Virus record (IMG/VR): IMGVR_UViG_3300006358_000003
DNA from: an uncultured virus (IMG/VR IMGVR_UViG_3300006358_000003)
Taxonomy: Duplodnaviria > Heunggongvirae > Uroviricota > Caudoviricetes
Strand: one strand, 5' to 3'
Length of the DNA: 64,000 bases
Under the pieces are notes generated by a model, which saw nothing but the letters and a program-made list of their open reading frames with translations, was not told where the DNA came from and ran no database searches. Shown here one piece after another: positions 20,830 through 53,864 of this stretch. Every line of letters starts with the position of its first letter. Position 1 is the first letter of the stretch. The translations under genes were made by a program, and so were the position numbers.

Positions 20830-23800
20830 TCAAGGTTGGGTGCCCATCTGGCGTTCGACCCGCTCACGGATGCCAGCTGGCTCGCCTGGTAGGCGGCGTA
20901 ACGTCCCTGCTGACGGACCTGGATGCATCGTCTGGCGGATGTAGTAGCGCATCAGCCCTGGCGGCACGCGCAACTCACGCATGTCGGCGATCGCGCCGTC
21001 CACGTCACCCTTCCTGATCTTGTCCCGGATGTCGGGGAGAGCTTTCTGCAGATCATACTTCTCGCGCTCGGTCTGGGCGTGCATCTCGCCGGCCGCCTGG
21101 CCGCCGGGGAAGCCCTGGCTGATCTGTGCCGCTCCGGTCAGCGGGCCGAGGATCTTCATGGCGGACACATATGGATCGGCCTGCGTCTTCTCGCCGAGGA
21201 TGTGCTGATGCATCATCTCGCTAAGGCCCTGGATGAATGCTGTCGGCCCGAGGCCCTCGCCGATGTGTTTGACCACTGCGCCGGCGATGCGGAGGTGGTC
21301 GCCCAGCGTCTCCGGATTCGGCTTGTAGATGTCGCGCCCGAGCGTGTCCTTGCCGAATATCGACTCGATGATCGGCCGCACCAGAGGCGACAGCTTGTTC
21401 TCGATCATGGTGCCCGGCCTGGAGAACCAGCCGACGAACTCCTCGCCTACCTTTCCCGGTGGTAGCCGCAGATAGATCGCGCGGCCCTGACTGTCGGTGC
21501 CGGCATAGACGCGATCCTGCTTGCCAGGCTCGTTCCAATGCTGCGGGAGCACCCCGAAGATGGACAGAGGATTGTCCGCCATACCGGAGACTGCGGATCC
21601 GGCCTTGTCGATCCAGTCCTGATAGGTCTGCTGCGCGGCGGCGGGAAGCCCAAGCGTCGGGGTCTGCCGCAGCACCTGGAGACCGGCCTGCAACACGCCG
21701 TTGGCAAGGTAGAAAAGTCCAATGTCCATCGTGAACGCGGCGATGGCCTTGTTCCGCATGGCAGACTGCGCCGACTTCGCTACGTCCGGCCCGGCCATCT
21801 GCTCGATGCGGGAGCGAATGTGCGATGGCGCCCCGGACAGCATGTCCTTCATCACACCGAGGTTGCCCAGCGTGAACGACCGGGAGAACAGCAACAGGTT
21901 CGCCGCCATGTTCGCGGCGCGTCCAAGGTGCTCGGGAGGCAGCGCCCCGGCGTAGCGATTGGCGATGTGCGCCGCCATCGTGCCGGCCACCTCAGGCGCG
22001 AACCCCTTGTCGATGTAGCGCTGCCGCATCGTGTCGTAGATGCCGACCTGGAGATTGAAGACCTGATCCCATAGGAGCGCCTGGTGGGGATGCTGCACCA
22101 CATCGTGCAGGAACTGGCCGCCGATAGTCTTCGCGCCGTTCGCCACCGCGTCGCGCATGCCGGTCAGAGCGCGGACGAAGCCATTGCGTCCCTCGACGTT
22201 GGCCTGATCGGCAATCGACACCGGATCGACGTGCCAGCCCTGGCCGAGAGGAGCCAGCCCATCCGTCGTCGCCTGATCCATGTATCCAAGGTCGCGCCGT
22301 AGCCGGCTGCCATCACGCAACGCCTGGAGGGTCAATACCTTCAGCGGCATCACCGGGAGGGACCGGCCGAGTTCGACCGCAAGGTGGATGAACGGCGAGA
22401 ACATGATGGAGGTCATGACGCCGCCCTTCAGCCCCTGCGCTGCGCGATACCAGGTGGGGCTTGGCTTGGTAAGCACCGCCTTGAGCGGCCCCTCGAACTC
22501 CTTGGCGACGTGGATCGCCTGCCACCCGCTGCCCGTCCAGCGACGGAACGAAGGGTGGTCAGCCATGGTGAAGAACTCGCCAGGCTGGAGCATGCCTGGG
22601 ATGTCGCCCCGCACCACGAGGTCGACGCCGGTATCCTTTCCCACGCGCTCTATGGCGTTCATCAGGTCGACGCCGGCCATGGCTCGGTGTGAGAAGGCCA
22701 GCCGCGCAGGCAGCGAGCGGATGTCGCGGAGGATCGCCACGTCCTGCCCGAGCTTCGCCTTCGCTGCGGCCTCGGTCTCCTCCGCCGTGAGATGCTTGCG
22801 CTCCATCGGCCCCGCAGTCGTCAGGTTGCGGCCCCTCTCATCAAGGCCTCGGCCAGTGCCAGCTCCGGCACCACCTGGGCGGGTAAATCCCTCTGCCTCG
22901 GTCCAGCGGAGGATCTGGCGCGGGAAGTAGTAGGGCAGACCACGAGCATTCGGGTCGACCATGCCCCGTTCTTGCATCTGTCGCCATGTGTCCTGCGAGA
23001 TGCGGTCCAGCATGTCGATCACCTGACGCTGGTTCGCCGGCAGTGACGCGAGCCCATCGCCAGAGGCATCGAACTGCGTGCGGGCCGCGGCTTGCTGGTC
23101 TGGCGGGAGATCGCGAACCTGTTGCTCGAACGCCGATTGCGCGTCCAGCTTGGTCCCCATGGTGCGCCGTTCGTCGGCCGTGAAGTTGCGCTCGATCTCC
23201 TTGTCGATCTGGCCGAAGCGGTATTGCACTTTGCGCAGCGCGTTGGCGAAGGTGCCTGCGAACGCCTGGGCGCGTCCGCTGCCGCCCTGCATCGGGGCCA
23301 AGCCATCGGCGATCGAGCGGGTGACTTCCTTGGCAGCGTGCAGAACAGCGTCGGCCGTGCGCTGGATAGGGCCGGCCGGCGTAGTGGTGGTCGCCGGCGG
23401 CCCGGCTACCGGCCGTCTAGCGAACCCTTCCGCCCCAGGCCCAGCGCCTTCCTGTGCCGTCTGCCGCTTCTCCCCACGTAGCACGCTGTCGAACACGTCA
23501 TCCGCCGTGCGGAAGCCCTCCCCGCGCAGCAGCGAGCCGGTGCGCTCGATAAACCGCGTCATCCGATTGTATGGCTCTGGCGGCTGCAGGCCGCGCTTCA
23601 GCGCGTCCTCACCCATGCGCGCCACGGCTTCGTCGCGCAACTCCGCCTGCCCGTAGCCCGCGCGTTCCAGAGAGGCGCGGTTGCCGTCGCGCTCCAGCCA
23701 ACGGTCGGCGGCGCGATACAGAACGGCACGCTCGCCAGGACGCAGCAGCCCTAGGCGTGTGTCGGTCAGGCCATGGACGACTTCATGGAACAGCTTCCCC

Positions 23801-26800
23801 GCGATCTGCTCCGGCGGCGTGTCTAGCGCCAACTCGATCATCGACCGGGTGTATTTGCCGTCAGCCGTGCCGTCGCCTGCCGCGATCCTATCCACCAGAC
23901 GGAGCCCGACCGATGGCGGGAGGCCAGCCTCGCGCATGATCCGCTGCGCTGCGGTTGCGAGGCGGGCGCGGGCTTCGGCGTCGATCTCGCGCGGGGATTC
24001 CTCGCCGGCCCGCTTGGCGAACAGCGGGAGGCCCTCGGTCTGGACGGCGCGGCGGAGTTCGGGGGAAATGTCGAAGCTGTGGACGGGCTGCGTAATATCA
24101 GGATCTCCGGTGTTTCTCCCGTCGCCTAAATCGGCCGTGTCATAGTGCGGGTTCTCGTAACTGATTTCAGATCGCCCCACCTTCGAGCCGAACTTGCCGA
24201 CGATCTTCTGCGTCTCGGTCGGCAGCATGCGGTCGTAGAAGCCCTTCATCCCCTCGCCGCCTACCTTTAGGTCGAGGCCGGATAGCTCCCGCGTAGATCC
24301 GATATCTCGCCGCTTCTTGTTGATCTCCTCCGCCCTGTCATTGAGGTATTTGGTGGCGTAGGCTCGGGCGTCTTCTTCCGTGCTGACGGTCTGCTTTCCG
24401 ATCTCCACAGCGCGGCCATCAGGAGCAGTCACACGCCAATCTTGCGGTCTATCTTGTACCTCAAGGTCAAACTGACGGACCCGCGGCAGTTGCCTTAGCG
24501 TCTGATGTTCCTGCCTCAGAAGCCTGTCAGAAGCCTCCTTGCCGATGAGATCGGGCAATTCCTTGGCTGGGTCGGCTATCGGACGTTCGATAACCTTGCG
24601 CCCTGAGTGGTCAGTCGCCGTCAGGTAGTGGCTGCCGTTCGGGCGCTCTTGCAAGGCAAGTTTGCTGATCTGCTTGCTCAGATCATACCTCGCCGCCTGC
24701 ACCTCTCCAGGCGTCCAAGCCACGCGGTCGAACCCGTTATCCACCGCCCACTTGATGATCCGCTTCATCGTCAGTTGCGGCCAGGTGGTTTTGAACGGGG
24801 CGTCGGGGACGCGGTCGTGCGCTGCCAAACGCTCATTGGCTGCATCTGCGGCAGCCGCCGCCGCTGCTTCGTCGGGGTAGTATCGGTCATTCTCGACAAC
24901 GCCGGCGTGGTCCGCAATGACCCACCCCATGGACCTTTGGACCGGACGCAACTTCACGTCGTCGGGCAGATCCTTACTGGCCGATCCGAGATAGCCTCGC
25001 TTCCTCCCGGTCTGGTGCCAATCGCTCTGCGCCTCATCCATCAGCAGCACGCGCTTGCCGTCCGGCGCGGTGCGCTCGTCAAAGCGGATGTGCGCCAGGA
25101 CGTTCGGCTCGTCCCAATGGGCGCTGGTGAACTGCGTTTCTACCTTTCGCTGATTCTTTTCCCACTTCGCCAGCAGTGCGTCGAGCCGCGGCTGCTCGGC
25201 AGGATCGCGCGCTGTCTTGATGTCGTTCGGCCAGTCCTTCAAAAGCCCTCTAATTTGTGCGTCCAACGCCGACTGGTCGATCCCCTTCACCGGCAGCGTA
25301 ATCAGCATCTCGCGGTAGTTCTCGCCGCCCGGTAGCGAGTAGGTGCCGAACTTGGTTGGTTCTCTTGCGACGTTCTCTCGCGCGCTCTGAACAGCCTGCC
25401 ACACCCTGTCATCGCTAATGTCGCCGAAACCTTCATCCGTGCTCGGGTTGTATTTTCGCCAAGGCGCGACATCCTCCCGCTTGGTCAGCGTGCCCAGAGC
25501 GTAGGAGTTCTGCTGCGCCCACGCCTCCGGGCTTCCTGGCGTGAAGTCGCCTTTCACCACCTCTCGCACATCCAGCGAGTTGGCACGCACGTAATCCTGT
25601 ATCTCCGCCTTCGTTACCGAGGGGCGGTTGCGCAGGAAGTCGTCTAGCCCCAGCCACTTGATCTCCTCCGGCTTCACGCCGGGCGTCTTCTGGAGCATGG
25701 CGAGCATCTGCTGCCCGCTGCCCTTGGCCTGCTTCAGCGCATCGGTAGCGCGTTCCACGGCGCTGTAGAGCGGCACGCGGGGAGGCTCCTCGCGGCGGGA
25801 GAACTGAATGCGCGAGTCGTTGGGGTCAAACGTGCCGCGGTTGCCAATGGCGGATTTGATCTGCTCAGGGTCGAAAGCGACGATCTCACTAAGCCCACCA
25901 TCCCCATGGGAGTATGGCAGGATGATCCCGTCATAACCCTTGGCTCGCAGTTCTTCGGTAGCCTGTGCGGCTGCCGCTGGGTTTCGACGCGATGCCAGCA
26001 TAAGCCTTTCTTTGTCGGCAATCGTCGCTTGGTAGGGGTTCTTGATCTTCAGATACACCGGCATAATGTTTGGACGTTCGCCAGCCTTCATGGTGGCGTA
26101 ATCGCCAGCTAGGTCCGGCGCATTCCAGAAGTAGAACCCCCTGCCTAGCCAGCCTGCATCTTTCCGGTTCGGTCGGTCATGTTCAAATGTCTCAAACGAG
26201 TCCGCCGTCCCATGATAGACACGCAATGGCTTGCCATCTGCATCTACGATCTTTGACGCCCCGAACCACCGCTTGAACTCCGGCGTCTCGGTCGGATCGC
26301 GCCGCGAGAACATCGACGGCTGCTCATCCGGCGTCGCGAATAGCCCTTCGTCCGCCTTCGCCTGCGGTGTCTTGGGTGCGAGCGCGCCACGCCCAGCCTG
26401 ATCGCGCGCGGCCTGCGCCTGCACGGCGGCGTCCGCTTTGCCGAACATATCGACCTGGCGCGGGTCGGTGCGGATGGTGTGCTCGGTCGGCGGCTTCTCC
26501 TGCCGTTCGCGCTCGGGCTCGCCGAACAACGGGGCGCCCGTGGTCTGCGGGCGGGGTGGACGGCGGGCAAACTGGGCGGGTGGCTGCGGCTGTCTTACGA
26601 ACTCTGCGGTGCTAGAGAAGTCCTTGTTGCGGCCCATGTTCTTAACGAAACCGAGCGACTGATAAAACCGCTCCAGCCTTCGCTTGGATATTCCGGTATC
26701 CATGGGATCAGCGTTAAGGAATAACGTGGCGCCTTCCTGATCCGCCTTAGCTATGAATTGCTCCATAGCCCGGCGCGCTTCTCCCCGACCACGGTCAGAG

Positions 26801-29800
26801 CGTGGCGTCTTAACCAGGATCACCTCAGCGCTTTTGCCGTCGCGGCTTACGCCGTAGTCAATCTGGGTCTTGCCTATGGTTGCTGTCTTGGAGCCGCCGC
26901 CGGGTGTCCAATCAAATACTTCATCACGTGGCCGGCGGGCGAAAAGCGGCTCGACGCCTGCCTCTACTCCGGCAGACCCTTCGCCCGGCGTGCCCGGAGA
27001 TCCTGCGCCACCAGCAGTAGCGCGTGATCGTACGCCATCTTGCGCTGTTCTTCGCTCAATTTCCCGAACGGCGGCAAGGAACCTGGACGCAACGGCCCCT
27101 GCGGCGTGGCCGTCTGCAAGCTCGCGGGCGGCTGCACTGAGGGCGTCGGAGACTGGCCCCCTGGTGGTGGCGTTCTTGTCGAGGATGTCGAGGAGCCGCT
27201 CATTGGCCGATTTTGCGGCAACGTTCCGCGCCGTGTCCAGAACATTCCCAGCGCCGGTCAGTGTCTCCTCGCCTTCGACCGCCGCACGGAACAACCCGCG
27301 GCCTCGGCGCAGCACGCGCATCGCGGTGTCCAGCACGCGGGCACGCTCTGGGATCAGCGACTTGGCGAAAGCCTCCTCGCCGAACAGACCGGCCTCAGTG
27401 CCCTTGGCGAAGCCGCTGTTTCGCACGTCCTCAACCATGATGCGGGCTTGCGTGCTGTTGGCCGGCTGTGCGCGGCTCAATACCTCGAGCGCCGCCATCT
27501 GCTCGCGCGGATCGGAGATCAGATCGCCGACGTGTGCCGCGAAGCCCTCCGGCACCAGCCCGTTGGAGACCATGCCGAAAGCCTCATCGGACAGCTTGGC
27601 AAGACTGCGGCCTTGCTGAACCATCGCGGACTTCGGTGGCAGGTCGGGAAGCGCTCGGTCCTCTGGTATCGCCACGTTTGAACGCAGGATGCGCGCTGCA
27701 TCCATGGCCGTTCCGCTACCCTCGGCGATATTCTGATAGGCACCGAGGACGCGCATGTAGTCTGGCGTGAAGCCGTCCGCCTCACGGTAGATCCGCGTCG
27801 GAACCTGAACGTCGGGCTGGCCTTCTGCCTTGGCCTGTAGGGCGCGGTTCGTGCGTTGATGGCCGTTGACGACGTAGGTGTTGCCGTCGTTGCCCTGCCA
27901 GGCGGTGATCGGTTGCGCCAGGTCAGGCTCCCATCTTGCGGTGCCAGCGAGCGCCCCGGTGCGGCCCTGTTCGTCAGCCTCCTTATATTGAAAGCGCTTC
28001 GGATCCAGCGTCAGTTGCTCTGGATTGAGCATGACGTACGGCGCTTCGGCACCTGGCGAGGCCGGCGCCGCTTCCTGCGGCGGGGGCGCTACCGGCTCCG
28101 GCAGAGCTGCGGCCTGCGCTTTATTGGCGATCTCCGGCGGCAGAAAGAAGTCGTGTTCCGGCCTGCTGGTGAAGTCTTTCGCTCCGGGCTGATTGATGGC
28201 CCGGTATCGCTCGAGGTCTGCGGTCGGCACATCGACATACCGAACCGTGCCGTTCGGGTGCTCGCGCGCATACCATTCGGCTTCGGCCGGATCGTGTGTG
28301 AACCACCGACCGGACGCCGCATCTGCACCGGATAGCCGCGTTGCGTCCTGCAACCAGTCCGGCACGTTACGCGTCGCCCGCATCTGCTCGGCTTCGGCCG
28401 GCGTCGGGCCAATCCGATAGAGCCTCGTGGTTCCTTGCTGCGTCTCTGTTGGTCTACCAGGCGGCGATGGCGGGGGCGGCTCGAACCGGGCCGGCGGCAA
28501 CGCTGGCGGCTGGGCCGGTGCTCCCGGCGGCGATGGCGGGGGCGGCGTCATGCTCGCCTGCAACGCCGCCTGCGTCTCGGGCGACAGGCTCTCCATCGGC
28601 CAGTTCGCCACGGTCGGGTCGACGCCGGCCTTCTTGGCGATCTCTGCCCGCTCTGCCGGCGGCGTCTGATCCCACGGCTTCGCCTCGGCTGCCATCGCCT
28701 GGAGCGTAGGCAACGCGGATCCGCTCGGCGGCGCACCTCTGGCAATGCTCTGGAGTTCGGCAACGGGAGCCGGGGCGGCAGGGGGTTGCTCGGGAGTTGG
28801 CGGCGGTGCGGCAGCCGGGGCGGGTTCGCCGCGGGCCGCAGACTCCATGTCGGCAACGCCCTGGCGAATGGTCGGCGATGCTACGGGCTCGGGTGGTGCC
28901 CTGGTAACGTCGTGCGGCATCGCGCCATGCGGCGCTCCGGTCATCCCAAGGCTTTCCGCCATGCCGCCGATGTCGCGCGCCAACGTATCTGGCAGACCAA
29001 GGCCGCGAGCGGTTTCGTAAGCAGCCTGCACACCTCCCTGAAATGCCGCATTGAACGCCGCAAGCGCAGTTCCGACCACACGAGCGTCACCGCCTAACCC
29101 GTGCTTGTCCGCCCATTCCTGCGCCATAGGCGTCAGAAACTCAGTGTTGTTCCACGCCTCTTTCGCCGCACCCAATACGCGATCAAGACTGGTATCAGCG
29201 CCGCGCGCGCGAATTGCCTCGGTGGCCGCCGCAGTCCTCGGCTGCCCGAGGTCCGAACTCGTGCCAGGCGGCGGCAGTTCGGCGCCCGACAGCGGGTCGA
29301 TGGTCCCCTTCCCGCCGAATGTGCCCTGCCCAGGACCGACCGCTGGGGGCGCCGCCGGCTGCCCCTCAGTCTGCGCCATCGGCAGGTCGATCACCGCGCG
29401 ACGATTGGACAGCGGTCGGCCGCCGGTCTCGGGGATCAGCGATGGCGGCTGGTAGGTTTCCCACGGAGGTCGCTGCGCTGCCGGTGCCGCGCTCGGGTAT
29501 TGCGTCCACGGTCCGGCCTGCGCCTTATCCTGAACGTCCGGCGCTTGCAGTCGTCGCGCCTTCCGCTCCGCGTAGCCGCGCGAGACGCTATCCAGGTAGG
29601 CGCTGGTTCTCGGCCCCCAGTTCGTGGTGTCTGGCCCGCCGTGATAGGCGGCAACGCCCATGTCACGGTTGCCGCCGAAGGTGTCGGTCATTTGACGGAG
29701 GTATCGCGCGGCACCGTAGATCGATTGACGCGGGCTGCTCGTATCCGTGACGCCCATTTCACGCGCCGTTGCCGGCAGAAACTGCATCCAGCCACGAGCG

Positions 29801-29958
29801 CCCTGCGGCGAAACGGCATTCGGATCGTCGTGTGGATCCTCTACGCCATGCACCGCCCGCAGCAGATCAGGGTCGACGTTGTACTGCTTCCCCGCCGCGT
29901 CGTAGTGCTGATCGAGGTTGTCGTCGGACTGGTAGGTGTTCCAGGGTCCGTCCGGCAT
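20830..29958 (-). CDS. Giant polyvalent ejection protein: SLT transglycosylase, ART-like, ParB-like, GNAT, ART-PolyVal-like, large polyvalent domain, zincin HExxH
   Basis: VE..AVSPQGARGWMQFLP..AAYHGG; LYRIG..RWFT; VVNGHQR; RGRGEA..FYQSLGF; FKRWFG..VYHGT..GFYF..QIKSAIGNRGTF; EAQSDWHQ; FHEVVH. Confidence 0.9.
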   Translation of the reverse strand: MPDGPWNTYQSDDNLDQHYDAAGKQYNVDPDLLRAVHGVEDPHDDPNAVSPQGARGWMQFLPATAREMGVTDTSSPRQSIYGAARYLRQMTDTFGGNRDMGVAAYHGGPDTTNWGPRTSAYLDSVSRGYAERKARRLQAPDVQDKAQAGPWTQYPSAAPAAQRPPWETYQPPSLIPETGGRPLSNRRAVIDLPMAQTEGQPAAPPAVGPGQGTFGGKGTIDPLSGAELPPPGTSSDLGQPRTAAATEAIRARGADTSLDRVLGAAKEAWNNTEFLTPMAQEWADKHGLGGDARVVGTALAAFNAAFQGGVQAAYETARGLGLPDTLARDIGGMAESLGMTGAPHGAMPHDVTRAPPEPVASPTIRQGVADMESAARGEPAPAAAPPPTPEQPPAAPAPVAELQSIARGAPPSGSALPTLQAMAAEAKPWDQTPPAERAEIAKKAGVDPTVANWPMESLSPETQAALQASMTPPPPSPPGAPAQPPALPPARFEPPPPSPPGRPTETQQGTTRLYRIGPTPAEAEQMRATRNVPDWLQDATRLSGADAASGRWFTHDPAEAEWYAREHPNGTVRYVDVPTADLERYRAINQPGAKDFTSRPEHDFFLPPEIANKAQAAALPEPVAPPPQEAAPASPGAEAPYVMLNPEQLTLDPKRFQYKEADEQGRTGALAGTARWEPDLAQPITAWQGNDGNTYVVNGHQRTNRALQAKAEGQPDVQVPTRIYREADGFTPDYMRVLGAYQNIAEGSGTAMDAARILRSNVAIPEDRALPDLPPKSAMVQQGRSLAKLSDEAFGMVSNGLVPEGFAAHVGDLISDPREQMAALEVLSRAQPANSTQARIMVEDVRNSGFAKGTEAGLFGEEAFAKSLIPERARVLDTAMRVLRRGRGLFRAAVEGEETLTGAGNVLDTARNVAAKSANERLLDILDKNATTRGPVSDALSAAARELADGHAAGAVASRFLAAVREIERRTAQDGVRSRATAGGAGSPGTPGEGSAGVEAGVEPLFARRPRDEVFDWTPGGGSKTATIGKTQIDYGVSRDGKSAEVILVKTPRSDRGRGEARRAMEQFIAKADQEGATLFLNADPMDTGISKRRLERFYQSLGFVKNMGRNKDFSSTAEFVRQPQPPAQFARRPPRPQTTGAPLFGEPERERQEKPPTEHTIRTDPRQVDMFGKADAAVQAQAARDQAGRGALAPKTPQAKADEGLFATPDEQPSMFSRRDPTETPEFKRWFGASKIVDADGKPLRVYHGTADSFETFEHDRPNRKDAGWLGRGFYFWNAPDLAGDYATMKAGERPNIMPVYLKIKNPYQATIADKERLMLASRRNPAAAAQATEELRAKGYDGIILPYSHGDGGLSEIVAFDPEQIKSAIGNRGTFDPNDSRIQFSRREEPPRVPLYSAVERATDALKQAKGSGQQMLAMLQKTPGVKPEEIKWLGLDDFLRNRPSVTKAEIQDYVRANSLDVREVVKGDFTPGSPEAWAQQNSYALGTLTKREDVAPWRKYNPSTDEGFGDISDDRVWQAVQSARENVAREPTKFGTYSLPGGENYREMLITLPVKGIDQSALDAQIRGLLKDWPNDIKTARDPAEQPRLDALLAKWEKNQRKVETQFTSAHWDEPNVLAHIRFDERTAPDGKRVLLMDEAQSDWHQTGRKRGYLGSASKDLPDDVKLRPVQRSMGWVIADHAGVVENDRYYPDEAAAAAAADAANERLAAHDRVPDAPFKTTWPQLTMKRIIKWAVDNGFDRVAWTPGEVQAARYDLSKQISKLALQERPNGSHYLTATDHSGRKVIERPIADPAKELPDLIGKEASDRLLRQEHQTLRQLPRVRQFDLEVQDRPQDWRVTAPDGRAVEIGKQTVSTEEDARAYATKYLNDRAEEINKKRRDIGSTRELSGLDLKVGGEGMKGFYDRMLPTETQKIVGKFGSKVGRSEISYENPHYDTADLGDGRNTGDPDITQPVHSFDISPELRRAVQTEGLPLFAKRAGEESPREIDAEARARLATAAQRIMREAGLPPSVGLRLVDRIAAGDGTADGKYTRSMIELALDTPPEQIAGKLFHEVVHGLTDTRLGLLRPGERAVLYRAADRWLERDGNRASLERAGYGQAELRDEAVARMGEDALKRGLQPPEPYNRMTRFIERTGSLLRGEGFRTADDVFDSVLRGEKRQTAQEGAGPGAEGFARRPVAGPPATTTTPAGPIQRTADAVLHAAKEVTRSIADGLAPMQGGSGRAQAFAGTFANALRKVQYRFGQIDKEIERNFTADERRTMGTKLDAQSAFEQQVRDLPPDQQAAARTQFDASGDGLASLPANQRQVIDMLDRISQDTWRQMQERGMVDPNARGLPYYFPRQILRWTEAEGFTRPGGAGAGTGRGLDERGRNLTTAGPMERKHLTAEETEAAAKAKLGQDVAILRDIRSLPARLAFSHRAMAGVDLMNAIERVGKDTGVDLVVRGDIPGMLQPGEFFTMADHPSFRRWTGSGWQAIHVAKEFEGPLKAVLTKPSPTWYRAAQGLKGGVMTSIMFSPFIHLAVELGRSLPVMPLKVLTLQALRDGSRLRRDLGYMDQATTDGLAPLGQGWHVDPVSIADQANVEGRNGFVRALTGMRDAVANGAKTIGGQFLHDVVQHPHQALLWDQVFNLQVGIYDTMRQRYIDKGFAPEVAGTMAAHIANRYAGALPPEHLGRAANMAANLLLFSRSFTLGNLGVMKDMLSGAPSHIRSRIEQMAGPDVAKSAQSAMRNKAIAAFTMDIGLFYLANGVLQAGLQVLRQTPTLGLPAAAQQTYQDWIDKAGSAVSGMADNPLSIFGVLPQHWNEPGKQDRVYAGTDSQGRAIYLRLPPGKVGEEFVGWFSRPGTMIENKLSPLVRPIIESIFGKDTLGRDIYKPNPETLGDHLRIAGAVVKHIGEGLGPTAFIQGLSEMMHQHILGEKTQADPYVSAMKILGPLTGAAQISQGFPGGQAAGEMHAQTEREKYDLQKALPDIRDKIRKGDVDGAIADMRELRVPPGLMRYYIRQTMHPGPSAGTLRRLPGEPAGIRERVERQMGTQP

Positions 29959-29961: not shown

Positions 29962-32900
29962 CTACTGCGCCACCCAGCTCGCGGGATTGCCGGGGTCGCC
30001 TCCCTGGTAGCGATACCCCTGCACTACGTCTCCGACCTTCGGAACTGGCGGCGCGGGTCCCTTGGCTGCGGCCGGTGCGGTCGGCCGAACCGCCGCAGCC
30101 TTCTCCTGCGCCTGCTCCGGCGTCAGCATGAACTTGCCGGTGATCGGATCCTTCGAGCCGAGATAGACGCGCAGCGCGTCGTTGTTCATGCCCTGGATCT
30201 GCTTCTGCACCGCCGCCTGCGCCGCCCGGTCATTGCCGATGCCGTGCTGCTTGATGGTCTCCTGCAACGCTTGCTGGCGTAGGGCCGTCTGCTGGTCGAT
30301 CTGGTCGAGGCGGTTCAGGTGGTAGTTCGCCGAGTCTATCGCCCGGCCACGGTTGGTATCGGCATTCTGCTGGCCGACAGCCAGTCGGCCTTGGCCTAGT
30401 TCAGTCTGCGCCTGGTGCCATGCTGCGGTCTCGCTCAATCCCTGGCTTCTCAGGTCTGCCGCGCGACTGGCGATCTGCGCCCGCGTGTCGATGCCGTAGC
30501 GGCGCGTGTCCAGCGTGCCGGAATGGTAGAGACTGGTTTCCGCCAGCCTTGCCTTGGCCTCATCGACCTTGGAAGCCAACGCCTCGGCCGCCCGCTGATC
30601 CGACCTATACGACGCGATCCCAGCCGCGGCGGCCCGCCCGATATTCTCCATCGCGAATGGTGAGCGCCCCGCAGCCATGGTGAACCCGGCCTCTGCCAGA
30701 GCAAGCCACGGATCCGCCTTGTGGACGTTCGGCGGCCAGGTGGTATCGCGCTGCGGATTGCCGAAGCCAGGACCGCTGTCGGGCGCCAGGCCGTCTGCCA
30801 GGATGCTCGGACCCTGCGGCGCCCCGGTGTCAGCCGTCGCCGGCGGAGGCGGCGGGGGAGGCCCGGCGCCCTGCGCCACGCTATCGCCACCGCCCGTGTC
30901 CGGCATAGTGAACTCCGGCATCGGTGGCGCATTGGCGCCCACCACCGGCACCGCAGCATCGGGCGTTCTGAGCGGCCCGCTATAGTCCAGAAGGCCGCCG
31001 CCTTCGGTGTCGGGATTTGCGAGCGCGCTGTAGTCGAGCAGCCCGCCTTCCGCGCGCCGCGGGAACATCCGGCCGCCGCGCCAGCCCCACTGCCCGCTTG
31101 CGTCCTGGCCATGGCCGCCTGAGCCGCCACCGCTAACCCCGCCGCCCTCGCCACCGCCGAACCCGCCAGCACCCCAATTGCCACCAAAGCCCCTGGTGGC
31201 GCTAACCCCCGTGCCCTGATAGTCGCCGTTCATCGCCTGGAAGAAAGCATCTTGCGCGCCAGGCACACCGGCTTGAGCTTGCTGCGCGAGGGTGTCCATC
31301 GTGACCCGCGGATCGCGGAACGAGGGGAAGCCGGCTGCGATCGCCACCCCTGCGTTTGGTCCGTAGATAGCCGCGTCCTTGGATACGCCCTGTTGGAAGG
31401 CATTGGCGATCATGGAGGTCGGCGTCTGCCCCTGCTGCTGTTGCGGCGCGGGAGCCGCGGCGGCTGGCGCCGGAGCCGGTGTCGGCGGCGGCACGTAGGC
31501 GCCAGCCTTCTGCTGTGCGAGGTAGTTGTTCACCTCGTCGGCGCTGCCGGAACCGCTACCGTCGTAGCTGATCTGCGGCACCGAGAACCCGGTCTTCGCC
31601 GATGGATCGGATGTTACCACCATGCCGCCGGGCGCGCGGTGCGGCACGCGGATGCCACCGCCTCGGTTGAGGAACATGGCCACAACGCCGGCGATCTTCG
31701 CTACATCGCCGATCGCTTGAAGGGCTTGCTGACCGCCGCTGCTGCCACCACCACCGCCCGTCGTGGTGCTGGTGCTCTGCTTCGCCTGCGACGGCTGGCC
31801 TGGGTTCGGCGGAGGCGGCACATACGACACGCTAACATCGGGATTGAGGTTGGAGGTAAGACCGCTCTTGCCATCCGAAGCCCCGCCCCCCATCGGAACA
31901 GCAAACCCACCCGGCTCCCCGGTCGCACCGAGCGGATCGCCGAAGCTTCCCATCGACATACTCAACTCGTCACCCGGCACCGAGCCTCCCGGCGCGCGAT
32001 GAACCGCCCCCCCGCGACGGAATATCCCACCCGACTGAAACAGATTGCCGGCGAGGTCAGCCGATGCTCCGCCAGTAGCGCTCATCCCCAACGAATTGCC
32101 CAACAGGTCGAAGCCAGCATTGCCGCCGTTCGTGAACGTGTCCGTCGCGTTGACGGGGGAGCCGCCGCCGCTACCAAAGAGCCCGTTGAAGGCTCCCGTG
32201 GACCCGGCCAGCCCGGCTGCGCCAGCGGCCAGTCCGAGCCCCTGCGAGAATGGCGATGGTCCCGGCGCGCTGGTCGACGCCGTTCCGCCCGCTGCATTCG
32301 CCAACTGCGACGACAGCCCAGACAGCCACGAGGCGGTCTGGAACGGATACGACTGCTGCGCCTGCCACTGTTGGAACGGGATGTTCAATCCCTGTTGCGC
32401 TTGCTGCTGCTGCAAGCCGCCGGCGCCCATCAGCGCATTCGCCGAGGCCAGCGTGGTGGAAAGCGCCTCTTGCCCGAGGTTGCCGAAGCCAGCGCCGGCC
32501 TGGCTATTGAGCCATGCGTTCGCCTGATCCGCCCCGAGTTGCGCGCCTTGCTGCTGGTTGAACTCCTGTTGCGCCTGCCCGAACCCGGTGTTGTAGAGGT
32601 TCGCGATGACCGGCGCCTGCGACAGATCCTCTTGCCCCTGCAACACCGCTTGCGCCACGCCGGCCCGGTCGCCACCGAGCGCGCCGCGTGATGCCGCATC
32701 GCCCTGGAGACGGTTCGCCGCCTGCGCATTCTGGTTGTTGAATTGCGCCTGCGTGGCGTCGACCACGCTGTTGACGTAGGGGTTGAAATACTTCCCCACG
32801 GTGTCGGCGCTGTACTGCGGCAAGCCGGACCACAGCGGCGTGGTGGCTGCGTCGTAGTGCTGGGCTGCAGCATTGAGATAGGGCGCTGCGATCCCCGGAG

Positions 32901-33153
32901 TCGAGCCGACAAGGCCGAAGCCCTGCATCTGCTGCGGGGAGAAACCGGCTTGCAGTTGGCCGGGGTAGTTCTGGTATGGCGCCGAAGCCGCCGCCTGGCC
33001 TTGCGTCAGAGCGGAGCTTAGACCGGCCTGAAACTGGGGCGGTGGCTGCGTATTGCTGACCGTGGTCTGGGTGTTCGATCCACCACCGCTGCCGCCGCCG
33101 CTCTTGCGTGGCGCGGCTGCCCAGAAGTCCTCGGCGTGAAGGATCCCGCGCAT
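29962..33153 (-). CDS. DNA ejection/transfer protein (Gln/Gly/Ala-rich), possibly a fusion
   Basis: YFNPY..V, GALGGDRAGV, QQSYPFQ; C-terminal PKVGDVVQGYRYQGGDP..W; RGG/RAxGG repeats. Confidence 0.8.
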   Translation of the reverse strand: MRGILHAEDFWAAAPRKSGGGSGGGSNTQTTVSNTQPPPQFQAGLSSALTQGQAAASAPYQNYPGQLQAGFSPQQMQGFGLVGSTPGIAAPYLNAAAQHYDAATTPLWSGLPQYSADTVGKYFNPYVNSVVDATQAQFNNQNAQAANRLQGDAASRGALGGDRAGVAQAVLQGQEDLSQAPVIANLYNTGFGQAQQEFNQQQGAQLGADQANAWLNSQAGAGFGNLGQEALSTTLASANALMGAGGLQQQQAQQGLNIPFQQWQAQQSYPFQTASWLSGLSSQLANAAGGTASTSAPGPSPFSQGLGLAAGAAGLAGSTGAFNGLFGSGGGSPVNATDTFTNGGNAGFDLLGNSLGMSATGGASADLAGNLFQSGGIFRRGGAVHRAPGGSVPGDELSMSMGSFGDPLGATGEPGGFAVPMGGGASDGKSGLTSNLNPDVSVSYVPPPPNPGQPSQAKQSTSTTTGGGGGSSGGQQALQAIGDVAKIAGVVAMFLNRGGGIRVPHRAPGGMVVTSDPSAKTGFSVPQISYDGSGSGSADEVNNYLAQQKAGAYVPPPTPAPAPAAAAPAPQQQQGQTPTSMIANAFQQGVSKDAAIYGPNAGVAIAAGFPSFRDPRVTMDTLAQQAQAGVPGAQDAFFQAMNGDYQGTGVSATRGFGGNWGAGGFGGGEGGGVSGGGSGGHGQDASGQWGWRGGRMFPRRAEGGLLDYSALANPDTEGGGLLDYSGPLRTPDAAVPVVGANAPPMPEFTMPDTGGGDSVAQGAGPPPPPPPATADTGAPQGPSILADGLAPDSGPGFGNPQRDTTWPPNVHKADPWLALAEAGFTMAAGRSPFAMENIGRAAAAGIASYRSDQRAAEALASKVDEAKARLAETSLYHSGTLDTRRYGIDTRAQIASRAADLRSQGLSETAAWHQAQTELGQGRLAVGQQNADTNRGRAIDSANYHLNRLDQIDQQTALRQQALQETIKQHGIGNDRAAQAAVQKQIQGMNNDALRVYLGSKDPITGKFMLTPEQAQEKAAAVRPTAPAAAKGPAPPVPKVGDVVQGYRYQGGDPGNPASWVAQ

Positions 33154-33650
33154 CACGCGGCCTCAGACTTCATGTAGCGGAACGTCCCGTCGCCGATCAT
33201 AAACACGTCGGTGACAAGGCTGCCGTAGCGGGAGAAGAACCGGCGCTTCCGCTCCGCGTCGCCACGCGGCATCGAGCAGATCAGAACCGGCGCCTCGGCA
33301 ATCGCCTCGAACCACTTCGCGAACCGCATCAGCGTCACGGCGTGACGCGACTTCCGGTGCAGCGGATGGACGAACACGAGAAGCTCGACGTAATACCAGC
33401 TTCCGGCGTCGCCATACCAGTTGCGGGCAGGCTGGAAGCCGATCACCGCCTCGAGGCGGTCAGGTCCCGGTATCACCGCCATTATCATGCCGTCGTGGGC
33501 AATGGCCTTGCCGAGCACCTCACGAACCGCAGTCGGATCGCACCCGCCCCAGCCGTTCTCGCGGTATGCCTCCATGCACAGATCGAACAGCGGGCGCTCG
33601 TCGCCTGGCTGTACAAGACGGATACCGGGGGGCATGTGCGGCGCGCTCAA
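33153..33650 (-). CDS. GNAT-fold acetyltransferase-like protein
   Basis: IRLVQPGD...FVHPLHRKSRHAVTLMRFAK; position before ejection genes. Confidence 0.8.
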   Translation of the reverse strand: MSAPHMPPGIRLVQPGDERPLFDLCMEAYRENGWGGCDPTAVREVLGKAIAHDGMIMAVIPGPDRLEAVIGFQPARNWYGDAGSWYYVELLVFVHPLHRKSRHAVTLMRFAKWFEAIAEAPVLICSMPRGDAERKRRFFSRYGSLVTDVFMIGDGTFRYMKSEAA

Positions 33651-33726
33651 GACAGAACCCTTTGGTCGGGTCCAGCCGGCGCGGCGGACAGTGAAGGCGG
33701 CAGTCTACCCCGTTACGGGGATGGCG

Positions 33727-34278: not shown

Positions 34279-34285
34279 TGGATCC

Positions 34286-35914
34286 TCACGATTTCACAGG
34301 GCCTGGCAACCGCTTAAGTTTAGCGATTGCCTTCTTGCGGGCATGCACGACGAACGCCTCGAGCACCTTAAAGCCCCGCTTGATGTCACCGCCGCCGATT
34401 GCCGCAACCTGCTCGGGATTTATGACGAACTCCCCGTCACTGAGCGCAACCGGCACATGGTCGATCTTGCCGCCGCGAGTGAAGTGCGGCGCAGCTGGAG
34501 GCCGCGGCAGCCCACGCCCACCGCCGCCACGCGGCAGCGGTACGCCGTGCGGACCGGTCGACATCGCCATCTGTAGCGCATGAGCGCCGGCTAGGCTGTT
34601 GCCTTCCCCGAGCCCGGAGACGACATCGGCAGGAATCACGAACGAATTTGGGAGTGTCGCCGTCTTGATCGAGTCAGCCCTTCCCGGCGTCGCTCCGTGC
34701 AGAAAGCCGGAGGTCGGCATAGACGCTGGGCGCATTGCCGATCGCGTCCATGGCGGTTCCATCATCCCCATGCCCAGCGCTGGCGGCTTAATCATCCCGC
34801 CCGGCGCGTAGCCTTCCGCCTGACCCTGCCCATCGCCGCCGAAGCCCTGGACGCCCTGGCGTAGCGCCGAGAGGCCGGGCTGCAGCGTGTCCTCTTGCTG
34901 GCCTGGCGCGGGCGGTCTCGGCATTCCCCGTCCGCCGCCTCCACCGAAGCCCATGCTCTGCGAGGTCGGCATGGCGCGCTTCTGCTGGAGCACGCGGGCC
35001 GCAAGCCGCCCCATGGGCGAGTCCGGCCCCATGCGGATGACGGCTTCCTGCAACCCCTCGAGCGGCATGCCGCTGAACCGCTGGATCATCTGCTGCGACT
35101 GCGGGTCTTGCGTGCCGGAGGTCGGGAACAGGCCGCTTCCCTGCGTCGACGTGTCGGCCAGGGTGTCGCCGCCATCGGCGCGATGCAGCGTGCCACCGCG
35201 CGAGCGCCCCAGCAGTAGATTACCCGGTTCGCGTTGGTCGAAATACCGCTGAAGATTGCCCGTTCCGTAGGTCTGCCGGTTGGTTGCCCCCGGCATGAAC
35301 GCCCAGTTGCCGCTTGGCATTTTCGTCCAAACCCCAGCTTCGTTGCCGCCGTTCGCGTAGATGCTGCCCGTGCTGAACGTCGGGTGGTTCGGCTTCTTGA
35401 AGGTGTCGGGCATATGCCCAGCGGCCGGCGGCCCTCCACCGGAACTCGCCCAAGCCCCGCGCAGATCATAGTCGCTCGTATCGCCCGCGCGGCCCGACAT
35501 CTGCTGCCGATACAGCGCGTCACCGACCGGCGTCAGTTGGGTGTTGTAATTGCCGCTTTCGTCCGGGATATCGCCGCCATCAGCACGCTTCAAGCCGAGG
35601 TCAAACAGCTTGCACCAGCCACCGGCCGCTATGGTGCCAGTGACCTTCGCGCACCCGTTGGGGCGCTGGTAGTGCTCGCAGATACTGCAATGCTCGCTCT
35701 TGGTCCCCTGGACGGTGTACTGCGCCGCCGCCTTGGTCTCCTTGACGGCGCCACCGGTGGCTCGCTTCTCCCTGGCGTTCGCGGTGGCGATCGCCAAGCC
35801 TTCATCACCCGTCCGCTTGAGGATGGCATTCGCTACCTTGGAGGCATGCGCCGCCTGCGGGCCGGATAGGGAATGGTTGTGCCGTGCCTTGAACTCGCTG
35901 CCGCTCCAGGGCAT
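34286..35914 (-). CDS. Modular internal/ejection protein with a HiPIP-like domain; modules separated by RAxGG motifs
   Basis: CSICEHY..GC..GWC; KKPNHPTFS module; PGRADSI..FVIPADVV and LSDGEFVI modules. Confidence 0.8.
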   Translation of the reverse strand: MPWSGSEFKARHNHSLSGPQAAHASKVANAILKRTGDEGLAIATANAREKRATGGAVKETKAAAQYTVQGTKSEHCSICEHYQRPNGCAKVTGTIAAGGWCKLFDLGLKRADGGDIPDESGNYNTQLTPVGDALYRQQMSGRAGDTSDYDLRGAWASSGGGPPAAGHMPDTFKKPNHPTFSTGSIYANGGNEAGVWTKMPSGNWAFMPGATNRQTYGTGNLQRYFDQREPGNLLLGRSRGGTLHRADGGDTLADTSTQGSGLFPTSGTQDPQSQQMIQRFSGMPLEGLQEAVIRMGPDSPMGRLAARVLQQKRAMPTSQSMGFGGGGGRGMPRPPAPGQQEDTLQPGLSALRQGVQGFGGDGQGQAEGYAPGGMIKPPALGMGMMEPPWTRSAMRPASMPTSGFLHGATPGRADSIKTATLPNSFVIPADVVSGLGEGNSLAGAHALQMAMSTGPHGVPLPRGGGGRGLPRPPAAPHFTRGGKIDHVPVALSDGEFVINPEQVAAIGGGDIKRGFKVLEAFVVHARKKAIAKLKRLPGPVKS

Positions 35915-36687: not shown

Positions 36688-36705
36688 TGGGTTGCTCCTT
36701 GGTTG

Positions 36706-37191: not shown

Positions 37192-37292
37192 TTAGGTTAT
37201 CCCTATTGAGCGAGGCGGCGTTGGGGAAGGCCGCAGCCCGGCCCGCATATGGTTGCGCATGAGACAATCCGCAAATGACATCACCGTGGCGC

Positions 37293-37820: not shown

Positions 37821-37821
37821 C

Positions 37822-39985: not shown

Positions 39986-40270
39986 TCACACTCCTGCCAC
40001 CGGCAGCCACGTTCCCCCACCTCTGGACACGAATAGCGTGCTCCCGATCGCGCCTGCCGTGTCGCTGTAGAGGCTACCGATCGGCTTCACCGCGACCGGC
40101 GCACCGACGCCGCTGGTCCAGTCCGGCGCTCCCGTGACGCCGACCGAGATCATCATGCCGCCTTTCAGCAGCTCATACGTCGCGCCCTGCAGCTTTAGCA
40201 TCTGCTGCAAGGCGTCCACGATGCGGACGACATCGGAGATCGAGGAGGTGGCACCGAACGCGCCGCTCAT
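39986..40270 (-). CDS. Small tail-associated protein
   Basis: GAP...PIGSLY..GSTLFV..TW fibre-tip motif; follows nozzle gene. Confidence 0.65.
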   Translation of the reverse strand: MSGAFGATSSISDVVRIVDALQQMLKLQGATYELLKGGMMISVGVTGAPDWTSGVGAPVAVKPIGSLYSDTAGAIGSTLFVSRGGGTWLPVAGV

Positions 40271-42300
40271 CGCCGACCCGCCGGCGCAACGCGCGCTATC
40301 ACCGCGCCCATCCGCTGGTGTCCCCCAAGCGTGTCACCACCTACCTGGAGCGCCACCAGCTTGTTGCGAAGGTTCATGTTGACCATCGGCGCGCTGCTGT
40401 TCACGGCAAACGGTCCATATGCCGTGCCAGGATCCTCGGCGAAGTCTCGGCCAATGACCGTCAGCTTGGTGATCGGCTCAGGATCGCCCGCCTCGCGGAT
40501 GTGCTGGTGGAAGTCCGGTTCCAGCCGGTCGACGCGCATGTAGTCGCCCGCCTCGCCCAGCCAGAAGTTGCCCGACAGGAAGAACCAGACCATCGGGGCG
40601 CCGTTCGCGTTGTGGCCTTCCTCGTGCTGCATCAGCAGACCAGCGGTGTCCGCCCCGATCGGGTTGCCAACAGGCGAGTGATCCGTCCACGCCGTGCGCT
40701 GGTACTGCGACGACTGGCCCTTGTCCCAGAGGTTCTCGGCGTAGTTCCACTTCACGTAGCCGATCGGCGCCGCCGGATCGTAGATCGGCGAGGAAGGATC
40801 AATCGGGAAGTGCCACGCTACCTCGTCGTAGAGGGTGTTCAGCGCGCCGAATATCTGCTCCGTCTGGCTGTCGTCGAAGTTGTCGAACATCCACGACCAT
40901 ACGGTGCAGTCCAGCGGCGCGATGGCGCCACCGTCATACCGGAAGAACCCACGGTCGGACGGCCAGACCACCGAGTTGCCGACCACGACCGGCGCCCGCA
41001 TGCTGATCGCTTCGCAGTTCACGCCGATGCGGTTGAAGCCGAACACAAACGGCAAGCCCTGGTAGACCATCGACCACAGACCGACATCGGTCCAGATCAG
41101 CGCACCTAGGCCAACCGCTATCCCGGCGACGATCGTCGAGCCGGAAGGAAGCTGGAAGCTGCCAGCCTGGTTGGTGGCACTCGCCACCCACGCCGTGCGA
41201 TCTCCGCTATCGCTCCAGCGCACCAGGGTCGGAAACTGTTGGCCGCCAGTTTCCGCGCCAAGCGCCACCAATATCTGCGCCTGGGCAATGCCAAACACCA
41301 GGATGTTTGCTATCGGCGCATTTGGCACGATGGCGGCGGGGATGACAGCCGGCGGAGACCACGAGTAGATCGCGCCGTTCATCGGCGAGGCGATGAGGTC
41401 CTGGCCCCAGTGATCGAGCGACCACAGACGAAGGCCAAGGATCACGCTGCTGTTGGCTCCCCCCCAATCTCCCGCGCCCCAGTCACCGCCGCCCCACCCG
41501 CCGGAGGCCACGTTGACCGCCTGCCCTGACGCGATGAGATACTGGATCTGGACATTCCCGCCGTTCTCGGCGCCGGTCGTGGTGGCGCTCGCCAGGCCGG
41601 TGGCTACGAAGTCCACGCGGTTCGCATCGACCACATTGGTGACGGTGTAGGTGCCAGACAGGACGATGGTCGCCACCGTCGTGGAGACGGGCACCGTGAA
41701 CGCATCGCCGAGCGCAAGCCCGTGGTTGTTAAGCGTACGTCGCACGGTCGCGGTGCCGATCGTCGTGGCGAACACCGGAACGGCGCCGCCGTGGTTCACG
41801 AGCGTCGTGGCGGGCGCGGCCGCCTGGATCGTGTAGGTGGTGCCGCTGACGATGCTCTGCACCAGGTAGAAGCCCTGGAGCACGATGCCGCCGACCGAAA
41901 CAGCGTCTATGATGTTGATCCAGTCACCGGCGCCTGCCGTGGTGATCGCATCGACGACGGTGACAACCTGCGAGCCTGCCGTGGTCGAGAAGTCCATCGC
42001 GATGTTGTCGGTCGCACGCAGCGGGGTGATGTCCCCGAGGATGCCGCCGCTGGTCACGGCCAGGCGCTGCTCAGTGCCGATCGCCAGATATGGATTCCCA
42101 TTAAAATCGGACCAAGCAAAAAGCGCCCGGCATGTTCCTACGTATGGCGGAGAGATGAGATACTGTACCCATCCACCAAGCTTTTCTGCGAGACCGTTGA
42201 AAAACCTTATGAGGTTCGAGTCGCTTATTCCCCCCTCATTTAAGGTGTTAGTTTTTTCAATATCTACCCCACCGCGGAGAAGGAGCTTCTTTAGAGGCAT
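40267..42300 (-). CDS. Tail nozzle / packaged-DNA stabilization protein (P22 gp10-like beta-propeller)
   Basis: RFFNGLAEKLGGW, WSLDHWGQDLIA, VRWSD..W..NQAG; size and synteny. Confidence 0.85.
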   Translation of the reverse strand: MPLKKLLLRGGVDIEKTNTLNEGGISDSNLIRFFNGLAEKLGGWVQYLISPPYVGTCRALFAWSDFNGNPYLAIGTEQRLAVTSGGILGDITPLRATDNIAMDFSTTAGSQVVTVVDAITTAGAGDWINIIDAVSVGGIVLQGFYLVQSIVSGTTYTIQAAAPATTLVNHGGAVPVFATTIGTATVRRTLNNHGLALGDAFTVPVSTTVATIVLSGTYTVTNVVDANRVDFVATGLASATTTGAENGGNVQIQYLIASGQAVNVASGGWGGGDWGAGDWGGANSSVILGLRLWSLDHWGQDLIASPMNGAIYSWSPPAVIPAAIVPNAPIANILVFGIAQAQILVALGAETGGQQFPTLVRWSDSGDRTAWVASATNQAGSFQLPSGSTIVAGIAVGLGALIWTDVGLWSMVYQGLPFVFGFNRIGVNCEAISMRAPVVVGNSVVWPSDRGFFRYDGGAIAPLDCTVWSWMFDNFDDSQTEQIFGALNTLYDEVAWHFPIDPSSPIYDPAAPIGYVKWNYAENLWDKGQSSQYQRTAWTDHSPVGNPIGADTAGLLMQHEEGHNANGAPMVWFFLSGNFWLGEAGDYMRVDRLEPDFHQHIREAGDPEPITKLTVIGRDFAEDPGTAYGPFAVNSSAPMVNMNLRNKLVALQVGGDTLGGHQRMGAVIARVAPAGRR

Positions 42301-47407: not shown

Positions 47408-47671
47408 TCAACACGCCTTCCCACCACGGCGCCGTTTGTCCATACGATCGGCCGACGCCTCGCCCTCGACGGAGCCGCCGGCCTTGAACCCGAACTTGGC
47501 CTTCACCTTGGCGCGCACCGTCGCCTTCTCTGCCGACGTGCCGTGCTGCGACACCCGCGCCTTGGCGTTCTGGGCGTGGCTCCGGTCATTCAAGGGGTAG
47601 GCCCTCCTGCCGGGGATCCCGAACACGCTGCTTGGTAGCGCGTTTCTCTGTTTTGTCGTCAAGCGGGGCAC
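47408..47671 (-). CDS. Small basic virion-associated protein
   Basis: LTTKQRNALPSSVFG..YPLNDRSHAQNA.ARV; FKAGG and RRGG motifs. Confidence 0.75.
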   Translation of the reverse strand: MPRLTTKQRNALPSSVFGIPGRRAYPLNDRSHAQNAKARVSQHGTSAEKATVRAKVKAKFGFKAGGSVEGEASADRMDKRRRGGKAC

Positions 47672-48183: not shown

Positions 48184-48507
48184 TCAGCCTACGGCTTCTG
48201 CCTCGTTGCCCTTGCTCGGCGCATCGGTCGTGTTGTGCCCCGAGGACATCGGCGAACCGCCTGCCGACTTCATGCCGCGGATCGATCCGCCGTGCTTGCG
48301 GCCCGGCAGTGCCCCGCCGCGCGCGCGCTTGTCCATGCGCTCCTCCGACGCCGATCCTTCAACCGAACCGCCCGACTTGCGCGCCTTGGTCTTGCCGCCG
48401 CGCTTGAAGCCGTCGCCCGTCTCCTTCATGGCGGACTCGGCCGCAGGCGAGCCCTTGGCGTTGTAGAGGGTGGTGCGGCCACCAGCCGCGCGGCGCTTAC
48501 GTGCCAT
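48184..48507 (-). CDS. Small basic protein with xxGG repeats
   Basis: GGAG RBS; RAAGG, FKRGG, RKSGG, RARGG, RKHGG. Confidence 0.75.
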   Translation of the reverse strand: MARKRRAAGGRTTLYNAKGSPAAESAMKETGDGFKRGGKTKARKSGGSVEGSASEERMDKRARGGALPGRKHGGSIRGMKSAGGSPMSSGHNTTDAPSKGNEAEAVG

Positions 48508-53645: not shown

Positions 53646-53864
53646 TCAGCCCTCTACCTTTGTGAGTTCCCGCGCCTCGGCGATCACCCAGCGCAGCGCT
53701 GCCAGGTATCCCATCGCGCCCCGGTAATCCTCGAGCGTCGCACACTTGTTCTCGACTACGATGCGCGCCCGTTCGTCGTAGTGCTCCACAATCCGCGGCC
53801 CCAGGCGCACCCAGAGCCGAGGGTCGTGGTAGGTCGGTCGGCCATCGTCAGGCAGGAGGGTCAA
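53646..53864 (-). CDS. Conserved small head-module protein
   Basis: EDYRGAMGYLAAL motif; upstream of GroES. Confidence 0.7.
   Translation of the reverse strand: MTLLPDDGRPTYHDPRLWVRLGPRIVEHYDERARIVVENKCATLEDYRGAMGYLAALRWVIAEARELTKVEG

Follow-up and report, generated by a model that had tools for sequence, protein, structure and literature searches.

A 542-residue open reading frame of an uncultured virus raises the question of why one phage protein should be built of small modules strung between copies of a short glycine-rich motif. The window analysed here, 64,000 nucleotides in full, covers positions 1-64,000 of a viral contig that is 67,984 bases long. A reading of the sequence alone had taken the motif for a cleavage or capsid-loading tag, and perhaps also a recombination joint, through which the phage delivers swappable effector modules with its DNA. 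The literature searched, with subscription papers and most supplements outside its scope, contains no description of the motif or of the protein family, and the motif is not mentioned in the available parts of PMC10172136, PMC11972413, the phi24B preprint, PMC4819975 and PMC10713586. The motif is real and widespread. On the analysis given below, we consider it probable, although by no means certain, that the protein (here called the carrier) is packed in the capsid and ejected, and that the motif is a maturation signal cut before its alanine, as in the tape-measure protein pb2 of phage T5. The features of the carrier are as follows.

34286..35914 (-), modular carrier protein, 542 aa, predicted internal virion protein
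35762..35914 (-), N-terminal helical module, aa 1-51
35750..35764 (-), motif 1, RATGG (aa 51)
35603..35731 (-), HiPIP/Iro-like four-Cys module (C76, C79, C88, C101), a rare insert
35573..35587 (-), motif 2, RADGG (aa 110)
35207..35563 (-), 'YNT' domain, mobile and unnamed, with invariant YD, H and KKPxHPTFS
35168..35206 (-), motifs 3 and 4, paired, RSRGG (aa 237) and RADGG (aa 245)
34973..35119 (-), small helical module, aa 266-314, found only in a subgroup of the carrier family
34796..34810 (-), motif 5, YAPGG (aa 369), preceding the core
34490..34717 (-), core half 1, with invariant G403, G411-R-x-D414 and P428
34469..34483 (-), motif 6, FTRGG (aa 478), in the loop joining the core halves
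34295..34465 (-), core half 2 (invariant G494-E495) and C-terminal helix

All six motifs were found as first described, with the modules lying between them, and they exceed chance: against 20,000 shuffles of the sequence, three RAxGG strings stand where 0.09 are expected (p 2e-4) and seven xAxGG strings where 1.5 are expected (p 6e-4). Two more xAxGG strings lie within modules, IAAGG in the HiPIP-like module and YANGG at residue 186 in YNT; both score below 5 bits on a motif profile trained on 874 sites of 256 carrier family proteins. Where motifs lie close together in the family, they are most often 8-9 residues apart, as motifs 3 and 4 are here. The N-terminal helical module occurs in at least three exchangeable types across the family, and minimal members are without it. 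An AF2 model of the chain (89 sequences in the alignment, mean pLDDT 69.8) shows confident blocks at about residues 1-52, 120-236, 266-314, 400-475 and 484-540. The proposal that every domain border coincides with a motif holds in this model for five of the six motifs, which lie in or border segments with pLDDT below 50; however, RSRGG 237 begins one residue ahead of such a segment, and the HiPIP-like stretch is itself modelled with low confidence from a shallow alignment, its border resting on family matches. The modules had also been described as unrelated, which is incorrect for the last two, as these are the two halves of one duplicated core. In the full-length model the carrier's own motifs are undocked on the core, an outcome that is uninformative for disordered linkers. 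Foldseek against the PDB returned nothing for this model at E<=0.001, the best hits of a VIA-wide fold search were small helical bundles (Z 5.1), and a BFVD search matched uncharacterised phage proteins only.

The constant part of the carrier family is this C-terminal core of 125-150 residues, a duplicated domain with the order strand-strand-helix-helix in both halves. The invariant residues are G, R, D, P and E, with no Cys, His or Ser among them; half 1 has the invariant R412 and D414 and half 2 the invariant E495, whereas tape-measure modules have all of these within one copy. In relatives the loop between the halves can take up insertions of at least 200 aa. No match to the core was found in the PDB. 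A VIA search with the core gave a best Z of 3.2 over 48,161 chains, with KH-like rows scattered among the results, and a KH-like fold was not accepted; a likeness to the Tk-subtilisin propeptide (E 0.002) was also discarded, as neither the core profile nor the fold search recovered it. Residues 425-552 of gp45, crAss cargo protein 1 (PF25725), reached an ESM feature score of 0.82, with no Pfam or PDB profile match.

The relatives of the core lie elsewhere. Its profile matches tape-measure PHROGs (E 1.6e-4) and two repeats in the mycobacteriophage Douge tape measure (E 0.076), and the core aligns motif-on-motif with residues 731-773 of lambda gpH (32%, weak). An [FY]AxGG..GE[FY]V pattern, described as a feature of many tape-measure C-termini, is indeed seen in the Douge tape measure and in gpH, and the presence of this xAxGG and GE[FY] C-terminal module in the carrier rests on evidence that is weak but concordant. 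In Pseudomonas phage F116, gp58 (phrog_11341) starts with this tandem core (hhalign 95.5%), with LAEGG on one side of it and FADGG on the other, and a long body is attached behind the core. In the Pelagibacter phage HTVC027P, gp82 has a single core module (76%) with a C-terminal helix after several motifs, and both genes lie directly upstream of predicted ejection genes. A single module also matches phrog_8003, a 'virion structural protein', in P0289. As part of our preferred explanation, the core probably has its origin in the module found behind the motif at the C-terminus of tape measures; in the lambda and Douge tape measures a GE[FY]-type module resembling each core half comes after the motif. 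The core is also the best candidate for a reader of the motif or a catalyst. F116 gp58 (L094:13815-13875) is annotated from a GTG, but starting it at an in-frame ATG that lies 20 codons further upstream brings in the LAEGG; its H66 homologue is annotated from the longer start. P0271 and L092:7961-10255 contain a related-looking G-R-x-x-D...H..P.E module in other ejection-type proteins, which may be a third subtype of core half.

The gene layout of the window is that of a podophage, and its morphogenesis genes place the carrier as follows.

57764-59530, terminase (Pfam/PHROG scan)
55388-57694, portal (Pfam/PHROG scan)
53861..54364 (-), basic Pro/Gly-rich protein, 167 aa, with three to four motif copies
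53241-53645 (-), GroES-like co-chaperonin, between the portal and the predicted scaffold; also present in the related genomes G004 and G005
49460-50368, major capsid (Pfam/PHROG scan)
48184..48507 (-), basic protein, 107 aa, with five strong and one weak motif copy
47408..47671 (-), basic protein, 87 aa (phrog_16160), with motif copies in its tail
44243-45834, adaptors (Pfam/PHROG scan)
40267..42300 (-), predicted tail nozzle (phrog_3287; labelled by position and size), 677 aa, the conserved upstream anchor; no motif >5 bits
33153..34278 (-), pair of GNAT-like genes, conserved on the downstream side of the carrier; no motif
29962..33156 (-), first DNA ejection protein (phrog_4287), with strong motifs at aa 379, 387, 507 and 701
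20830..29958 (-), polyvalent ejection protein, 3042 aa, with SLT, ART-PolyVal and HExxH domains and one degenerate motif

Searched against 1.84 billion proteins, the core profile retrieves 7,973 representatives at E<1e-3, of which 1,387 pass E<1e-30, and family members range from 122 to 1,152 aa, with minimal forms of 122-160 aa. Among 92 loci chosen by the core plus the window, the nozzle cluster is present in 88 and the GNAT cluster in 77. When 24 loci were selected by the nozzle instead, the core gene came next after it in 18, and in the remaining six the sequence stops no more than about 1.3 kb past the nozzle; no core-less phage was found among the 24, and so the co-occurrence test is one without a negative class. 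The gene occupies a slot between tail nozzle and ejection genes in uncultured podophages, and it is a core morphogenesis gene with a small fixed part. It lies between tail tube genes and large ejection genes, as the position of a podophage ejection protein demands, and the gene orders P22 gp26/gp14/gp7 and T7 gp13/gp14 are what we take to be the counterpart slot, although none of these proteins gave a sequence or fold match to the carrier. By contrast, the carrier does not have the position or size of a tape measure, since its neighbours are nozzle, GNAT and ejection genes and its minimal relatives are of only 122-160 aa. The DNA was found in soil and rhizosphere runs, and no RNA dataset was listed as containing it. 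Relatives within genomes (12 loci) include Rhizobium, Ancylobacter, Acetobacteraceae and Stellaceae; thus, an alphaproteobacterial host is likely. The GNAT-like gene is doubled in the window and in a subgroup of relatives, while most have one. A conserved CxxC gene (19088-19513 (-)), which adjoins the adaptors in relatives, is here located 3' of the ejection genes with tail-fibre-like genes, and two homing-endonuclease-like genes, 42400-42948 (+) and 47586-48128 (-), judged by eye to be of HNH/AP2 and endonuclease VII-like type, lie inside the morphogenesis operon.

Outside the core, modules are gained, lost and swapped from motif to motif, even in near-identical strains. Homologs were expected to show such changes exactly at the motif if the modules are exchangeable and a constant architecture if they are not; the alignments agree with the former, in motif-to-motif indels, in the flanks of YNT and in a swap between strains, and only the core is constant. 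In an insertion test in which motifs were masked before BLAST, 91 events (not independent of one another) were collected from 67 of 193 proteins, and 52% of their ends fell within 10 aa of a motif, compared with 21% when the ends were placed at random, where none of 300 draws exceeded 31%. The other 48% lie more than 10 aa away, many of them bordering low-complexity linkers. In family members that contain YNT, a motif borders its left side in 11 of 11 cases and its right side in 14 of 16, but in other proteins with this domain in only 3 of 57 and 2 of 63, respectively; the flanks are therefore a property of the host chain and not of the cargo. A quick tree of 90 cores served for YNT gain and loss and for sister pairs. 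The 14 YNT carriers require 13 changes on it (at least 8 forced by well-supported branches), the same number as for shuffled labels. A motif-to-motif insert separates five of seven sister pairs picked from the tree, among them P0022 and P0081, which are identical over 540 aa apart from this insert; of the two remaining pairs, one differs in a replaced N-terminus and the other is free of large indels. A soil contig from run X5 can be aligned to 33700-35756, the two differing by 26 substitutions and 3 gaps; beyond that point the contig exchanges 153 bases for 165 before the match resumes at 35910. The N-terminal module is thereby swapped, and the junction at 35756 lies inside RATGG (motif 1). 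Named cargo was recognized in 9 of 74 long members: NUDIX in four, InPase in three, plus CHAP, SLT and LPD23. Two other long members, P0195 and P0197, have between motifs a kinase-like insert, read by eye and with no Pfam match, followed by an ART-PolyVal-like stretch.

The full consensus of the motif is [R/F/Y/M/H]-A-x-G-G-x-[V/T/I], with V enriched 4.1x. That it is common to other predicted internal virion proteins is seen both with the profile and in counts against shuffles. [RFYHM]AxGG occurs 344 times against 24.5 in shuffles in the carrier family (14-fold; 193 sequences), 130 against 20.7 in the first ejection protein (6.3-fold; 68 sequences) and 33 against 14.6 in the second (2.3-fold; 55 sequences), while nine other morphogenesis clusters show no enrichment (9 against 16.3 expected; 379 sequences). 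Within the window the profile hits the carrier, the first ejection protein and three small basic proteins of the head region, as well as a single site in the predicted scaffold and a single degenerate one in the giant protein; it finds no motif >5 bits in the capsid, portal or nozzle. G004 and G005 have motif-rich basic head genes as well. The three small basic proteins consist largely of motif repeats and are probably disordered, which makes them candidate internal DNA-condensing or scaffold-like peptides.

The evidence that the motif can be a cleavage site comes from T5. Its tape measure pb2 is cut after R1127, as mapped by mass spectrometry in the available text of Linares et al. (PMC10038345), and in the T5 record this cut reads VPR/AEGGMM (the slash marks the cut) and leaves 92 residues, the size quoted in the accessible part of PMC12617516. 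Only two xAxGG strings occur in the 1,219 aa of pb2, and the one that is cut ranks top under the carrier-family profile; for the second, at R138, no cut is given in the passages of the literature available. The proposed role as a cleavage site is therefore supported in T5, where the cut falls on R/AEGG, but its register is not the one envisaged, as the cut precedes Ala and does not follow GG. Because the segment beyond the cut does not align with the core (0.1%) or with gpH, the link to T5 consists of the five-residue motif only. In our analysis, T5 is the sole experimental datum and sets the register before Ala. In lambda, a piece of about 14 kDa is removed from the Gly-rich C-terminal region of gpH, with site and catalyst stated to be unknown in the available text of PMC12617516 (2025). 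The carrier-family profile ranks F733 (FATGG) and Y778 (YATGG) first in gpH. A cut at F733/A734, which our preferred reading predicts, would give a 12.5 kDa piece, and weaker xAxGG strings at 706-721 would give pieces of 14.1-14.8 kDa.

According to our preferred explanation, the carrier chain would be loaded into the prohead, where a cut of the form X/A-x-G-G would free modules with an A-x-G-G N-terminus. The predicted pieces, 1-51, 52-110, 111-237, 246-369, 370-478 and 479-542, would be of 5-14 kDa and would be ejected with or ahead of the DNA, their small size letting them through the narrow tail. Processing at this signal would extend to the first ejection protein, and the small basic head proteins would be reduced by it to short peptides. 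A domain that came to lie between two copies of the motif would be released cargo, and this would explain the motif-to-motif turnover. Points against cutting are the lack of a recognisable conserved protease, the want of Cys, His or Ser among the invariant core residues, the weak lambda homology, the insertion ends that lie away from a motif and the fact that the record does not flag the H66 homologue of F116 gp58 as verified by mass spectrometry, although three of its neighbours are so flagged. We tentatively put forward a broader version, which is possible but rather doubtful: X/A-x-G-G may be a maturation code across tailed phages, in which the GE module is a processing unit that cuts tape measures in cis and that here, as a stand-alone pseudo-dimer, acts in trans on several internal proteins, making any inter-motif domain an injected cargo; for lambda gpH, this would account for both the place and the means of its cleavage.

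The motif could instead be a docking tag, a reading that we regard as unlikely though not to be dismissed lightly. Free copies would bind core or tape-measure-type modules (or the portal, the scaffold or the capsid wall) and recruit intact proteins to the prohead, with the multi-copy basic proteins acting as staples. The confinement of the motif to predicted internal proteins and the scaffold is as docking would have it, as is the way it runs on as G-G-x-V/T/I and, in the alignment with the tape measure of Douge, looks like the strand with which the module begins. No protease was found, and the podophage phiRIO-1, considered here regardless of motif presence, is without processing according to the accessible part of PMC4819975. 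Nevertheless, one copy per chain would suffice as a tag, yet inserts are marked at both ends, and the T5 cut falls exactly on the motif; docking and cutting are, moreover, compatible with each other. A further alternative, which seems improbable, dispenses with any function at the protein level: the motif would be a tolerant linker and short repeat, and recombination between copies would add and remove modules. Motif-to-motif indels that leave one copy and the strain swap ending within motif 1 are what it predicts, and motif codon identity is slightly raised within a genome (0.44, compared with 0.38 between genomes and a background of 0.32). However, in 276 motifs every Ala and Gly codon is used at near its background rate, from which it follows that the constraint is on protein and not on DNA. 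The motif is also kept ahead of core half 2, between the halves, in 235 of 245 members, and it recurs in unrelated proteins of the same phages. As regards a recombination joint, no fixed DNA site lies beneath the motif, although indels do span motif to motif.

Adenovirus and ASFV repeat a Gly-Gly motif in structural precursors, small basic ones included, and a clan CE cysteine protease cuts after the GG. An enzyme of this type encoded at 37822-38589, or the HExxH domain, might cut the carrier chain in the same way; we consider this very improbable. The x-x-G-G of the motif does recall those sites, and HExxH autoproteolysis in polyvalent proteins was predicted by Iyer et al. in the available text of PMC5512222. 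Yet the mapped cut of T5 lies four residues upstream of the end of GG. No clan CE protease was matched by Pfam, PHROG or NCBIfam among the window proteins scanned, a subset of the ORFs. Both proteases named by the sequence-only reading also fare poorly by conservation. The product of 37822-38589 is papain-like by our own reading of its Cys/His pattern, belongs to a PHROG of unknown function and sits amid genes read as a lysis cassette, and it has no counterpart in the 92 related loci or in G004 and G005. Of 44 complete loci, only 5 have an HExxH domain in their ejection proteins, its bearer here has one degenerate motif, and HExxH is absent from the carrier sequence. No recognisable protease was found among the genes common to the window genome, G004 and G005. 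Since the proposed proteases are not conserved, the candidates left for the cutter are the core itself, an unannotated conserved gene or a host enzyme. The block read as a lysis cassette (36355-39895 (-); holin-like, lipoprotein-like and papain-like), between nozzle and carrier, is absent in related loci.

If the motif is a maturation signal, the carrier is best compared with tape measures and with polyvalent proteins. The processing of T5 pb2 to pb2* and pb2C and of lambda gpH to gpH* and gpHC involves proteins with the same five-residue motif. The carrier phage, however, is a podophage with no long tail, and the carrier lacks a ruler-length helical body, has six motifs rather than one or two and has the module duplicated in a gene of its own, while the motif has spread to several other genes of these phages. 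Polyvalent proteins are virion chains of unrelated effector domains for which domain release by proteolysis was predicted (Iyer et al., 2017, in the available text of PMC5512222). The carrier, with its HiPIP-like and YNT modules, likewise joins several unrelated domains in one chain, and its relatives draw on the same domain pool (InPase, LPD23, SLT and NUDIX). Unlike polyvalent proteins, about 36% of which have the HExxH domain MPTase (PMC5512222, in the text available), the carrier is small and without MPTase, its joints are a sequence motif absent from the available text of Iyer et al., and neither its core nor YNT matches a Pfam polyvalent-protein model. The carrier would link a core gene shared by many uncultured podophages to the cleavage of tape measures, which has been known since the 1970s. 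For the assembly of lambda and T5, it would make exact predictions on a point left open for fifty years, in lambda that gpHC begins at A734, and it would provide a rule by which the borders of cargo could be read in thousands of virion proteins now labelled 'hypothetical'. A real code would explain the quick swapping of injected enzymes and offer a simple route to studying protein delivery by phage particles.

The putative cargo modules of the carrier are themselves of interest. The YNT domain is also fused to SLT, amidase, LPD, InPase, MuF-C and portal proteins, and its invariant polar residues are Y34, D35, H52, D55, K58, K59, H62 and S66 (35207-35563 (-); P0263-P0327). With no assignment from the PDB, PHROG or the ESM Atlas, it has the look of a domain of injected proteins, enzymatic or binding, that has yet to be described. 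In P0282, a P22-like portal has a C-terminal tail of motif, YNT, motif and single core module. The HiPIP-like module, present in two members of the carrier family, matches NF041615 at E 1.9e-8 (34.5 bits against a cutoff of 100), Pfam HIPIP at E 0.054 (14.2 bits against a cutoff of 22) and PioC at E 0.0026; it is a putative Fe-S redox module in a predicted injected protein. HiPIP/Iro-like four-Cys modules (35603-35731 (-); P0002, P0324, P0292) are found in virion-type proteins of phages as inserts that are either terminal or bounded by motifs.
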